Shown: in pieces, positions 15,582 to 20,023 of the stretch
Layout of the letters: every line of letters starts with the position of its first letter
Numbering within the stretch: position 1 is the first letter of the stretch
From: an uncultured Verrucomicrobiae bacterium
Lineage (GTDB): Bacteria; Chlamydiota; Chlamydiia; Chlamydiales; Rhabdochlamydiaceae
Assembly: GCA_963731265.1 (NCBI GenBank)
Contig: CAVSUE010000001.1
Coordinates: 1,152,001 to 1,216,000 of the forward strand
DNA: 64,000 bases
Reading direction: 5' to 3'
Notes under the pieces: generated by a model
Database searches by the model: none
Told to the model about the DNA's origin: nothing
Seen by the model: only the letters and a program-made list of their open reading frames with translations
Position numbers and translations under genes: made by a program

Positions 15582-17337
15582 ATGTCCAAACTTAAAGTCT
15601 TTACGGCCTCACTCCTTCTTGCTACTACGCCAACTATGCTCGTGTATCCCCAATATACTCCTATCACCTTTCAAGTGCAGAGAGTGAGTAATGAAGAGCA
15701 AAGGACGGAAAAAGATTATATCTTGTCCTATGACGACATGCTCCGTTTGCTGGATGAAATTGAATCCGGTGAGCTAGAAAACAAATGTACTCCTGAAGAA
15801 CTAGAGAAGGTGAAACATTTTGTCGCGTTTTTAGCAAAAGAGGGGGTTCTTCCGAATAATTCTGAAGAAAGCCTATCCCCGGAACGATGATATAGAGAAC
15901 CTCCTGAATGGAGTTGACAACATCTATGAAGACACTGTCTCTTTTGTGACTCCCGGCGAATATCAGTACATGATTGTTCCTGCTGTCCTAAATGGACATG
16001 GAGAAATCGTTCTTTGCAAAAGCTGGGTCAAGAAGCAGTGGGAGCATGTCAAAAAGTTCGCGAAAAAACACAAGAAAGCGCTTATCATCGGAGCTGCTGT
16101 GGTCGTCGCAGCAGCCGTCGTTGTTGTGGCTGTAGCCGCTTCTGCTTCGGCAGTAGTTGGGGCCGCGGCAACCGGTGCAGCCGGGGCTGCTGGGGCTGCA
16201 GGATCTACCGACTCAGATAAAAAGGAGCAAAAAGAAGAGTCTTCCTCTGCTTCTTTAGTTCCTGCCGATATTCCAGCTCAGGAAGCTCCCATGTTGAAAT
16301 CAGCCATCGATGACCAGATCTCTTCCTTTAAAGCAAATATCATGCAGAACCAGTTTTTCGAGCCTACAAATCCAGCAGAGCAACAAGGTCTATCCTGGGA
16401 AGAAAACGGAAGAGCGTTAGGCTCTCTTTTTGCTCATGACAGCTTTAACAATCTGCAGCATCAGATCCCCTATCACCCCTGGCTTGCTCAAGAAATTCAC
16501 GACATCAATGAAAAATACACTTTCCTCATCCCAGGAGGAAATAACGAAGCTGGACACCCAGAGATCGACCGAAAGTTCTCGACCGATTACACCTCTCTGT
16601 ATTCAAATCCAGATCAACAAGTCGATTTTAACACCCTGTCCTATTAAGTCCGTGGAGAGAAGGCCTTATCATTGGGATATTACAACCAGGCAGTTCAGGA
16701 TTTAGGAATGGCCATTGAGGCAAACCCAACCAATCCCATTCCTTACCTTGAGAGAGGAATCGCCCATTTTGGTTTAGGACAATATGACAGCTCCTTAGAA
16801 GACTACAAACAGTTTACTTCTCAAGCTGAAAAATCAAACCCACGATCTGCTTCTCTATTCAGCATTGGTTTTGCAAAAGGATTATCGGAAGGCGTTTACG
16901 AATCTGGAGAAGGTTTATTCCTATTTATGGCCGACTTTGCGAGCCATCCCATTCAGACATCTGGGCAAATAGTCGAATCTGTATCGACATTAGTTGAACT
17001 GATTCGCAAAGATGAGTGGGGAGTTGTTGCCGAAGCCTTATCTCCAGAGATGCATCAGCTCGTAACTCAGTGGGACTCCCTACCACAGATAAAGAGGGGG
17101 GAGCTAGCTGGATATGCTGTAGGGAAACTCGGAGCAGATATTCTCCTTCCAGGAGGCCTGGCAAAAGTCATACTTAAAAGCGTAAAAAGCGCACAAGAAC
17201 TAGCTGCAGTTTGCAAAAACCTCCAAATCGCTCAAAAAACCCTTCTCCTTGAGACTGCGGCAGGAATTGGCAACAGCGCCAAAATCGCAGAAGTTGTTCG
17301 AAATGGTCAAACAATGATGGCTCTTGGAGAAGAGTAG
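15582..17337 (+). pseudogene. Disrupted secreted TPR-containing protein (frameshift near 15880, in-frame TAA at 16645-16647, 3' end truncated by the IS607 element)
   Basis: Three consecutive ORF pieces: signal-like N-terminus, Ala/Val hydrophobic stretch, then TPR (YNQAVQDLGMAIEANP...YLERG...LGQYDSSLEDY). The frame continues across the TAA. Confidence 0.8.
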
Positions 17338-17382
17338 TTAATAGTAGTGCAAAAACATACGCATATGTGAAAATATGCGGTC

Positions 17383-17663
17383 ATGAAGAACACATATTCT
17401 CCATATGAATTCGATTCGTGAATCCGACAGACGACGAAAATGCTATAAAGGTACGATCGTAGGCCCACCGGCGTTGTTATACGCATGATCAGTATGTGCA
17501 GATAACTGGGCTAAAACCCAAAAATCGATAGTTGGTCACTTATTGCAGAGCGTTGAGCGTAGGTCAAAAAAAGGATTTGATCTCATAGAAAAATGCTGTA
17601 GAATCTTTTTGCAAGAAAAAGATTATCTAAATGGCAAAAGACAATGAGAACTGTCAAGCGTAG
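17383..17663 (+). pseudogene. tnpA: Remnant of IS607 TnpA serine recombinase (MerR-like HTH plus start of the catalytic domain)
   Basis: Manual translation: MKNTYSPYEF...QTTKML*RYDR...RRCYTHDQY...KNR*LVTYCRALSVGQKKDLIS*KNAVESFC, then KKKII*MAKDNENCQA*. Stops, frameshifts and a large internal deletion. Confidence 0.8.
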
Positions 17664-19173
17664 GTCACTTCCACTCAACGGAAAAAAACAAACAGCTCTT
17701 GAAAGCTTATGCCAGGCATACACTGGTGAAAAACGGCTTTGGCTGCAACACTTCCAAGCCTGGGATTGTCAACCCTATTTAGGAAGGCCCCGAGCGATTC
17801 GCGATGAGAAAATCAAACAAGGCTATCGTTCACCCAACCAATTGCAGGCTCGTCATTGGAAACTTGCCCTTGATGACGCAGCTGAAACATGGGATAAATA
17901 TTGGCAGTCCACTTTTGTTAAAGTCCGCTTAAAGATCTCCCATCGGAAAGCACTCTCCGAGACGGAGAGCCATTATGCCTATTGGCTTCTGAAAGGTTAT
18001 TCCCAGTTTTCCGCCATGATGCAGGGGAAATGCCCGGAGCCGTCCTTTGCCATTGATGATCTCTCCCGGAGGCATATTGCAGGCTATGTGCGGAGGATCA
18101 CCAGACTCTGCAAAGGAAAACCACCCACTGTAAAAAAAGCCAGAAGCGTCCGGTTCGATGCCAACTGTTACGATCTTTTCGAGCACAAAGGGCGTCAATA
18201 CATCAAAATCATGTCTCTGATTCCCGGTAAGAGGATTTGTATCCCCTTATCCGGCAAAGCGCCTATTTCAGGCACAATTACCCTTGTTTTGTCAGAAGGA
18301 AACGTCGACTTTCACATCCCTCAAGAATTAAAAAAGAAGAATCCTCCCAAGACATCTCCCGAAGCTGTAGACTTTGGATATACTGAAGTCATGACGGATA
18401 CCCAAGGCATTCGTTATGGGACTCAATTTGGTACAATACTGACACAGGTATCAGAAAATCGGCACCAGAAAATGCAAAAACGTCACAAGCTGCATGCCAT
18501 GGAAAAGAAACCGACAACTTCCAATCCCAAAAAGGCAAAATCCCTTAGAAAATATAATCTAGGCAAGCAAAAACACCATGCGGCTGCCAAACGATTCAGG
18601 GCCACATTGGAAAGAGAAATCAACACGTCCATCAATCAACTCATCCAAACGAAAAATCCCTCCCTCTTAATCACAGAAGACTTGCGCCATACTTTCAAGT
18701 ATGACAAGTCTAAACAAATGAATAGAAGACTCTCCCGCTGGTTGAGAGGTAAACTACAAGATCGAATTGCTTTTAAAGCGTTGGCGGAAGGTTTCCGTCA
18801 TGAGCAGGTCAATCCGGCCTACGGCTCTCAAAGCTGTCCCTTTTGCGAATTTGTGGATCATCGAAATCGCAAAAACGACCGCTTTCAATGTCTGCATTGT
18901 GGACATGAGGACATATCGGACCGGATTGCCGCACTGAACTATGCCAGAAGATTTGGCGATCCTGAGATCGGACGGTATACGCCTTACCGTCAAGTAAAAA
19001 CCATTCTTTTGGACAGGTTCCACCGCCGATTGGAAACGGGGCAACCCGTGACTGTTCCAGGCAGGACTCTAGAAACCGTAATGGGGATGTATCCACCGTC
19101 ACCATCGAGACTAAGTCATAGCCGGAAGAGAGAAATCTCGCGAACCGGACGGTCAATCAGAGAGCGAAATTAA
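17644..19173 (+). CDS. tnpB: TnpB RNA-guided endonuclease (IS200/IS605/IS607 TnpB family)
   Basis: RuvC-I AVDFG, RuvC-II ITEDL, zinc finger CPFC...CLHC, RuvC-III SDRIAALN. Confidence 0.93.
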   Translation: MRTVKRRSLPLNGKKQTALESLCQAYTGEKRLWLQHFQAWDCQPYLGRPRAIRDEKIKQGYRSPNQLQARHWKLALDDAAETWDKYWQSTFVKVRLKISHRKALSETESHYAYWLLKGYSQFSAMMQGKCPEPSFAIDDLSRRHIAGYVRRITRLCKGKPPTVKKARSVRFDANCYDLFEHKGRQYIKIMSLIPGKRICIPLSGKAPISGTITLVLSEGNVDFHIPQELKKKNPPKTSPEAVDFGYTEVMTDTQGIRYGTQFGTILTQVSENRHQKMQKRHKLHAMEKKPTTSNPKKAKSLRKYNLGKQKHHAAAKRFRATLEREINTSINQLIQTKNPSLLITEDLRHTFKYDKSKQMNRRLSRWLRGKLQDRIAFKALAEGFRHEQVNPAYGSQSCPFCEFVDHRNRKNDRFQCLHCGHEDISDRIAALNYARRFGDPEIGRYTPYRQVKTILLDRFHRRLETGQPVTVPGRTLETVMGMYPPSPSRLSHSRKREISRTGRSIRERN

Positions 19174-19206
19174 AAATAAACACGTTTGAACACGTTTTTA
19201 GGAACA

Positions 19207-20023
19207 GCATTAGAGGGATTCCTTGTTTCGCTCTTGGGGTTGCTCGGGGCCTTATTGCCTGTTCCGAGCTATACACAGATTTGTCGCCGAGCTGCCTTCC
19301 TTGGCCAAATCGTCAAACGTCTCTCCTCCAAAAAGAACATCACGGACATTGTCATCGATTCATCAGGATTAAAAGTCTATGGGGAAGGGGAATGGAAAGT
19401 GCGTCAACATGGAAAGAGCAAACGACGAACATGGAGAAAAATCCATTTGGGCATTTGTGATCACTCACAAGAAATTGTATTGTCACTGTTAACAGAAAAT
19501 TCGGTGTCTGATGCAGAAGGAGCAGAAGAGATGGCAAAAGCCATGCCTTCAACAGTAAAAAGAGGTTACGGTGATGGAGCTTACGACAAAAGCAGTTGCT
19601 ACAAGAAGTTTCGAGAGCTTGGTATTGATTGGGTTACTCCTCCGCAAAGAGGAGCTGTGTGTCACGACCTTAAGCGCGAACCGTGGATGAAACAACCAAA
19701 TGATGCGATACGGGCTATTGCAGGGCTTGGCAATGATGAGGAAGCTCGGAGTATTTGGAAGAAATTAAAAGAATATCATAGACGGTCTCTCGCTGAAACA
19801 GGGGTATCTCGGTTTAAAATGATCTTTGGGAGCGGGCTGAAAGCAAGGGAAATTCGACGCCAGAGAGCTGAGGCACATGCAAAAGCGATTGCAATGAACA
19901 AAATGACTAGATTAGGAATGCCAAAAGGGAGGTGGGTGAATTAAGCTGCAAGAGAAACAAAATAAACATCTCGGTGCTCTCGGTGAGCTCGGTGGTTAAA
20001 TTTTTGGTTTATGCAACAAGACC
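19207..20023 (+). mobile_element. IS5-family (IS903 group) element, 5'-truncated; transposase fragment 19207-19944 and right IR 20006-20023
   Basis: PSYTQICRR, IDSSGLKVYGEGEW, RRTWRKIHL, GDGAYD, YHRRSLAET motifs; reverse complement of the IR is GGTCTTGTTGCATAAACC, IS903-like; N-terminus and left IR absent. Confidence 0.9.
19970..20000. repeat. Three CTCGGTG heptamers at 9-bp period ending in GTTAAA, inside the IS5 3' end
   Basis: ctcggtg-ct-ctcggtg-ag-ctcggtg-gttaaa. Confidence 0.7.

Follow-up and report, generated by a model that had tools for sequence, protein, structure and literature searches.

A tnpA-defective IS607-family element with a preserved TnpB, nested in an IS5 transposase gene of a Rhabdochlamydiaceae genome

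We analysed a 64,000-nucleotide stretch (hereafter the window) from the genome of an uncultured bacterium placed in the Rhabdochlamydiaceae (assembly GCA_963731265.1, contig CAVSUE010000001.1, positions 1,152,001 to 1,216,000 of the forward strand), which holds a whole IS607-family insertion sequence (IS) of 1873 bp at window positions 17335..19207 (+ strand). The transposase gene of this element, tnpA, is broken, while its tnpB gene encodes a protein with all catalytic and zinc-finger residues, and a scaffold resembling an omega-RNA, supported by covariation, ends at the right end of the element, directly before the coding sequence of an IS5-family transposase. The locus is probably an ordinary nested insertion, which was followed by loss of the 5' part of the IS5. 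We consider it probable, with good confidence in the explanation as a whole, that the element family is active or was recently active in this genome and that the window copy is a non-autonomous member of it.

Results

Ends and copies of the element

The ends were fixed by a DNA search of the genome itself (2.34 Mb in 2 contigs, 96% complete), followed by extraction of the matches. Nine copies were found, five of a long form (four of 2207 bp and one of 2198 bp) and four of a short form (1873-1874 bp), the latter at different sites and one of them split by an IS3-type element. All nine start with TA(A/G)TTAATA(G/C)TAGTGC and end with TTAGGAACAG, and the window copy, which belongs to the short form, starts with TAGTTAATAGTAGTGC at 17335 and stops with TTTTTAGGAACAG at 19207. 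These are the same start and right end that a first-pass annotation of this DNA had proposed from a single copy. Relatives outside the genome share both limits: the left one is common to 14 related loci, and similarity to 18960-19207 reaches 19207 and ceases there in 27 of 80 related metagenome loci, the flanks beyond being unrelated. In all of these 27 the homology stops after ...ACAG, preceded in 25 by the full GGAACAG; a further locus, L180, was kept out of this set, its match being confined to the last 24 nt.

The left flanks of the nine copies end in AGGAG, AAGAG, AGGAG, AAGAG, AAGAG(+C), GGGAG, GAGAG, AAGAG and AAGAG. GAG occupies positions -3 to -1 in 9/9 genome copies and in 14/14 related copies (two of the latter share one flank and may be a single insertion), and position -4 is A or G in all 23, with AAGAG as the commonest form. 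The right end reads ...CAG in all nine copies, the flank sequence is not repeated, and no target duplication is seen. From these 23 left flanks we infer 5'-RRGAG as the target of the family and as its target-adjacent motif (TAM), with an AG core shared with the right end ...AACAG. The first-pass annotation had noticed the AG junction and set it apart from the GG core of characterised IS607 elements. The AG itself is real, as the genome and related copies show, but it is no departure: among the 23 IS607 TnpBs studied in PMC11061315, the TAM is given as AGGAG in 18 of 22 strains and as GAGGG in 4 of 22, and a purine-rich TAM ending in AG was therefore already known. A GG core with a TGGG TAM is described for the Clostridium botulinum IStron (bioRxiv 10.1101/2023.11.20.567912). 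The self-site of the window copy, AACAG^CATTAG (^ marks the junction), does not fit the motif, as it lacks the G that is invariant at position -3.

Separately, in copy E (G000:C1:682362-684568) alone, an additional C stands between the GAG target and the left end. This copy carries the 8-mer CTAATTAA at both junctions, which suggests that its target resembled the element's own left terminus.

Loss of tnpA in the short form

Each of the five long copies encodes a 204-aa TnpA and a 512-515-aa TnpB in overlapping open reading frames (ORFs) on the same strand, with tnpA at 49-663 and tnpB from 626 in element coordinates. The long-copy TnpA has the MerR_1 helix-turn-helix and Resolvase domains (Pfam) and scores 207.6 bits on the NCBIfam equivalog transpos_IS607, with a cut-off of 110. 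Compared with the 2207-bp copies, the left end and decayed tnpA remnant of the window copy (17335..17643, +), which also holds a conserved palindrome, CGCATATGTGAAAATATGCG, at 17360-17379, lacks 28 nt and a further stretch of about 306 nt; the rest is about 76% identical to the long form and has no long frame, leaving some 300 nt before tnpB without a long ORF. The damage to tnpA that had been read from the window alone, with its stops and large deletion, is thus borne out, whereas the description of the IS607 as dead is not, given the five copies in the same genome that encode an intact TnpA.

The three short copies that remain unbroken occupy different sites and show 97-99% identity. This indicates that the short form moved after tnpA was damaged and that its ends are still usable. 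In the C. botulinum IStron, 40 bp of the left and 60 bp of the right end are reported to be sufficient for mobility (bioRxiv 10.1101/2023.11.20.567912), so copies without tnpA may be mobilisable in trans.

The divergence between the two forms shifts sharply at the start of tnpB, from about 24% upstream to 1-3% downstream, tnpB and the right end being 97-99% identical between short and long copies. A step of this kind points to either a mosaic origin or gene conversion that did not extend beyond tnpB. Among the 80 metagenome loci there was no relative of the short-form tnpA remnant closer than the resident long form, at 76%.

The TnpB protein

The tnpB gene (17644..19173, +) encodes 509 aa, with the RuvC residues D243, E345 and D426 and a CxxC...CxxC zinc finger formed by C398, C401, C416 and C419. 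All seven residues are invariant in an alignment of 28 family sequences of 55-92% identity and are found in 8/8 unbroken genome copies, the window copy included, in agreement with the earlier observation that this TnpB keeps its three acidic residues and its zinc finger. The protein matches Pfam Cas12f1-like_TNB with 47 bits (cut-off 26.3), and its zinc-finger part aligns to the zinc-finger and RuvC-III region of Cas12f.

An AlphaFold2 model (mean predicted local distance difference test score 73.6, with residues 437-509 predicted to be disordered) was compared with the PDB using Foldseek. Cas12, TnpB and Fanzor chains made up the whole of the top 50 matches, which had a best E-value of 4.9e-12 and include the TnpBs of ISFba1 (8iaz, E 8.6e-9) and ISDra2 (8h1j, E 4.3e-8). 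The TM-scores are only 0.3-0.4. The modelled protein is thus predicted to have a TnpB/Cas12f fold.

A search for homologues gave 260 at E up to 0.001, many of them on contigs of about 2 kb, and those that carry a name come from Rhabdochlamydiaceae or Chlamydiales metagenome-assembled genomes. Judged by these homologues, TnpBs of about 510 aa appear to form a divergent and largely chlamydial clade. By its profile scores (see below), the window TnpB belongs to a clade other than that of the NCBIfam IS607_TnpB model, and rides with an IS607 TnpA.

An omega-RNA-like scaffold that stops at the right end

The stretch ~19018..19207 (+), which overlaps the 3' end of tnpB and stops at the right end, has the properties expected of a structured RNA. 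In a protein alignment, several relatives read the last ~70 TnpB codons in other frames of visibly the same nucleotides, as would be expected if the DNA is conserved for an RNA and not for protein. We aligned the window with 26 of the 27 loci that share its right end (27 sequences in all; L181 was dropped as a duplicate of L169) and obtained with RNAalifold a consensus of 48 pairs in 9 helices, in which 18 pairs show compensatory double changes. Paired cells make up 96.7% of the total, compared with 34.5-47.4% after a shift of the 3' partners by 1-3 columns, and in column shuffles the observed alignment was ahead on all five measures in 500 of 500 cases, with 0/500 reaching the observed values. 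The consensus includes an invariant long-range helix, in which the terminal GGAACAG is predicted to pair with CTGTTCC about 150 nt upstream.

RAGATH-18 is included in Rfam. Neither a credible Rfam family nor a RAGATH-18 match was found for the scaffold in scans of 17200-20200 at E up to 1 and of 18980-19240 at E up to 10.

Covariation and the shared homology end support an omega-RNA-like scaffold that ends at the right end, and since it would terminate exactly at 19207, the flank stands in the position of a guide. The right end at 19207 and the placing of the scaffold before it and of the guide in the 3' flank had been proposed beforehand, and the ends and position are supported by the stop in homology and by the covariation.

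The guide position and the IS5 flank

Beyond 19207 lies a 5'-truncated IS5-family transposase gene (19207..19944, +), in line with the first reading of this flank as IS5 transposase coding sequence. Its frame scores 188.8 bits on NCBIfam NF033579 (cut-off 140), covering model positions 64 to 289 of 289, and matches Pfam DDE_Tnp_1 at 2.2e-22. Since full-length relatives have 316 aa, some 70 codons are missing from the start of the gene. These relatives carry the motif ...YRLPLRALEGF..., and the flank at the guide position reads ...ALEGFLVS... in the IS5 frame. The gene is followed by the IS5 3' untranslated part and right terminal repeat (...TTTATGCAACAAGACC) at 19945..20023 (+).

The predicted guide, or protospacer, is CATTAGAGGGATTCCTTGTT (19208..19227, +), inside the IS5 gene and adjoining the end of the scaffold. 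A length of 20 nt was assumed from published TnpB systems, and 16 nt were used in the mismatch scans. An intact TnpB and a scaffold that ends at the right end would be expected to form a ribonucleoprotein (RNP) guided by the 16-20 nt of IS5 flank that adjoin the element. The normal role of such an RNP would be to cut the vacated site, from which the element is then restored by recombination.

To find the uninterrupted form of the site, contigs from public sequencing runs were compared over 18700-19700. Contigs of three runs from three studies (X1, X2 and X3) are at least 99% identical to the window from 19206 on, with 0-1 differences, and share one leftward continuation (...CGCCTTCCATTAAG, ...GCCGTTTACCGCCTTCCATTAAG). 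The uninterrupted site reads TTAAGAG followed directly by CATTAGAGGG, with the protospacer identical to that of the window, and its frame, IKAVYRLPLR-ALEGF, restores the motif of the full-length relatives. The commonest target motif and the identical protospacer thus adjoin in uninterrupted IS5 of other samples. The contigs are continuous across the site for up to 625 nt (X3), and the whole IS5 would be intact in these runs. In X2 and X3 the TnpB part of the window, 18800-19175, is uncovered, which is no evidence of its absence.

In the genome itself the situation is different. Whole-genome searches gave a single match to the IS5 transposase gene by DNA and a single one by protein, with no other copy, and allowing up to 2 mismatches gave no further site for the 16-nt guide; 14 sites have 3 mismatches and none of them follows GAG. 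With a unique IS5 gene and no second guide site, no target for cutting or homing is found in this genome, in which the guide appears to be an orphan. The suggestion that intact IS5 copies elsewhere carry both TAM and protospacer consequently holds for the three public runs and finds no support in this genome. Wider scans, which may omit records of this genome or of very near genomes, gave 71 loci with exact matches to the 16-nt protospacer in contigs of representative genomes from other species, of which 0/71 encode an IS5 transposase (tblastn); about 280 are expected for a uniform 16-mer in 596 Gb by our estimate, and the 71 were counted as chance. The exact 20-nt protospacer has no match in metagenome contigs.

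These data bear on a reading in which the locus acts as a single-spacer immunity, its TnpB cutting incoming or resident intact IS5 at TTAAGAG^CATTAG and so purging the IS5 or blocking its re-entry. It would fit the TAM and perfect protospacer in the uninterrupted IS5 of other samples, the intact appearance of TnpB and scaffold, and a genome that keeps two IS5-derived elements resembling miniature inverted-repeat transposable elements (MITEs) and no other IS5 transposase gene. However, a genome that had never held more than a single IS5 would show the same lack of other copies, and such a picture would arise fortuitously from the nesting of any IS in another mobile element. The other eight IS607 copies all lie outside IS5 sequence, leaving no trace of homing into it, and the left arm of the IS5 is lost, so that a two-sided repair template is missing. 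We judge this reading very improbable. The anti-IS or homing nuclease that the first-pass annotation had envisaged is accordingly possible but unsupported, as no target was found in this genome and a guide matching the element's own pre-insertion site is something that all TnpB elements have, rather than a feature directed specifically against an IS. The nested insertion thus remains our preferred reading of the locus.

Left flank and rearrangement

The left flank differs from the right one. It is a truncated gene with tetratricopeptide repeats (TPRs; 16672..17334, +, with Pfam TPR matches), which ends in the target motif GAAGAG and takes its stop codon (TAG, 17335-17337) from the element. A paralogue at C1:1997778-2000045 is 95% identical, encodes 752-756 aa, continues for about 165 codons beyond the end of the window gene, and parts from it some 23 nt before the junction. 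That the left flank is itself IS5 sequence could be excluded, as it reads ...SWRR in the IS5 frame where ...LPLR is conserved, and no IS5 left end was found anywhere in the genome.

The simplest history that we can propose for the nested insertion has two steps. The element would have integrated into the IS5 transposase gene by serine-recombinase transposition at AAGAG^CATTAG, with the AG core shared with the right end. DNA to the left of the element, namely the 5' part of the IS5 and any sequence further out, would later have been lost between an RRGAG site in the TPR gene and the left end. Either the element recombined with a second copy that sat in a paralogue of the TPR gene, or TnpA mediated an adjacent deletion. 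The outcome would be the chimeric locus seen today, in which the TPR gene is followed by the element and then by the 3' part of the IS5. The loss of the left arm leaves a single homology arm, with which normal homing, and repair from a two-sided template, is not possible.

An open-frame scan over the reconstructed empty sites of the nine copies was uninformative. A stretch with 95% identity in the relative G003, tried as an empty site, is the orthologue of the paralogue at C1:1997778 and not of the window locus.

Evidence weighing against an active copy

Several observations weigh against the reading of the window copy as a functional member of the family that reached its site in this way. The TnpB scores 77.1 bits on NCBIfam guided_TnpB, below the cut-off of 100, and 20.5 bits on IS607_TnpB (NF038280), far below the cut-off of 350; activity can thus not be assumed from family membership. 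It also carries one private substitution, S365R, at a position that is variable in the family. In the scaffold, one covarying helix (helix 6) has a G.A mismatch in the window copy and in copy A where most copies have A-U; the same pair is unpaired in 7/27 aligned sequences. The sole contig from an RNA run (X15) covers 19565-19700, outside both scaffold and guide. As to the target, an IS5 copy may, though this is unlikely, have been missed in a genome that is 96% complete in 2 contigs. Finally, no empty site of the left junction was found in any relative, the last 45 nt of the left flank occurring nowhere else among the fetched loci, and the rearrangement is therefore deduced only from the mismatch of the two flanks.

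Some of these points would fit a copy that is an inert relic, untranscribed or without an RNP, with the long copies as the only biologically relevant ones. The damage to tnpA and its upstream context, the helix 6 mismatch and the confinement of the RNA-run contig to the IS5 part, which leaves the element without RNA evidence, all go in this direction, as does the only promoter-like site upstream of tnpB, a sigma-70-like sequence at 17577-17604 that is no better than chance (2 found, 2.9 expected). Yet few stretches are as well conserved between the two forms as the one that holds this site. The ORF is complete and retains every catalytic residue, and its last 200 nt are identical to those of long copy A. 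The near-identity of the three unbroken short copies, at different sites, also points to movement after the tnpA damage. We regard an inert relic as unlikely, if less so than an immunity function, and keep to a non-autonomous copy whose tnpB and guide RNA would be expressed, assemble and cut.

Further observations on the element and its neighbours

Copy F (G000:C1:860823-863609) is the short copy split by the IS3-type element, whose insert (an 87-aa HTH_Tnp_1 ORF and a 282-aa rve ORF) replaces about 307 bp of tnpB. In the same-genus genome G009, numerous miniature derivatives of the element occur on many contigs (for example C82:11196-11333 and C23:16889-17026). What is left of the element in them is either about 130 nt from its left end or a pair of segments from its right end, corresponding to 19019-19077 and 19151-19207; in the latter, both halves of the CTGTTCC/GGAACAG helix are kept and the middle of the scaffold is lost.

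The guide of long copy D (G000:C1:450814), taken as 16 nt, has four matches with 3 mismatches, near C1:452976, 465059, 1370549 and 1372862, each following TTGAAGAG, which is the flank of copy D; a fifth follows TTGAAGAA. The shared flank suggests that copy D lies in a repeated gene family, other members of which carry a TAM and a near-protospacer.

The two MITE-like elements (G000:C1:884554-884812 and 1807084-1807330) are about 250 bp long, have inverted ends identical or nearly so to the IS5 right terminus at 19967-20023, and are flanked by 9-bp target duplications, GTTCAACTC and TATTACATA. The same-genus genomes G018 and G007 hold many copies of a related short repeat, some of them arranged in tandem. 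In runs X2 and X3 a second contig form joins the IS5 from 19531 to the reverse complement of the MITE interior (ATCCACGAGGCACAATTACTGTCATATCT), and this junction hints at how the MITEs may derive from the IS5. Within the window, the IS5 frame is also open across the right end of the IS607 element: the ORF at 19186-19944 (252 aa) takes its TTG start and seven codons from inside that end.

The TPR gene as a whole (15582-17337) is a frameshifted, truncated paralogue of the 752-756-aa TPR protein, the C-terminal part of which is variable among paralogues. Another TPR paralogue carries copy A (G000:C1:41589) at almost the same point, only a few codons away and immediately behind the conserved stretch ...AKIAE(V/I).

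Discussion

The element resembles the IS607 elements of the ISFba1 type described in PMC11061315, with a serine-recombinase TnpA encoded upstream of tnpB, a scaffold at the 3' end with the guide taken from the flank, and a purine-rich TAM ending in AG (AGGAG there and, by inference from the flanks, RRGAG here) that equals the motif beside the left end. There are also clear differences. The TnpB of ISFba1 has 387 aa according to that source, compared with about 510 aa here; its guide RNA is derived from RAGATH-18, whereas the present scaffold has no match to that or any other Rfam family; and every single change of the TAM is reported to abolish cleavage, whereas position -4 takes A or G here. 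The low score on IS607_TnpB likewise sets the window TnpB apart from this group.

The C. botulinum IStron with CboTnpB, as presented by Zedaveinyte et al. (bioRxiv 10.1101/2023.11.20.567912), shares a core dinucleotide common to the target and the right end. In that system TnpA excises the element as a circle, the site left empty is cut by TnpB with its omega-RNA, and the element is thereby restored through recombination; a comparable cycle is likely here as far as can be read from the sequence. The two differ in core and TAM (GG and TGGG there, AG and RRGAG here) and in the group I intron of the IStron, none being detected in our Rfam scans. A third comparison is with the IS1341-type derivatives of IS605 and IS607 elements, which have tnpB only (PMC10691335). 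The short form is like these in having lost its transposase while keeping tnpB, guide RNA and both ends, and in being present in several copies beside autonomous relatives, and differs in that a 309-bp left end and tnpA remnant, about 24% diverged from the long form, is still present.

The chlamydial phylum is described as TnpB-poor (PMC10691335), and the locus provides a clean, fully delimited IS607-type TnpB element in a chlamydial genome. It offers a TnpB clade of about 510 aa, whose relatives in public genomes and metagenomes exceed 250, a covariation-backed scaffold without an Rfam family and a putative RRGAG TAM, together with a natural pair of predicted cut and protected sites, AAGAG and AACAG, that are one base apart. 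On nested insertion, or the targeting of one transposon by the TnpB of another, the literature search returned only general reviews or editing papers, which does not make the idea unpublished.

A bolder proposal, to which we give slightly less credence still than to the immunity reading above, is that the nested copy became by accident a one-spacer, CRISPR-like immunity that cuts every uninterrupted copy of the IS5. If true, it would explain why only MITEs and one truncated IS5 gene are found here and whole IS5 in other samples, and the locus would illustrate, in nature, the initial step by which a selfish TnpB turns into a defensive Cas12. On the reading that we favour, of a nested insertion in a family with resident transposase donors, nesting can be expected to yield, as a by-product, a guide directed against the other transposon, and such a guide would be of interest only if cleavage of the IS5 shapes the IS content of the genome. 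The locus is in any case a convenient natural substrate for asking whether TnpB elements exclude rival mobile elements.

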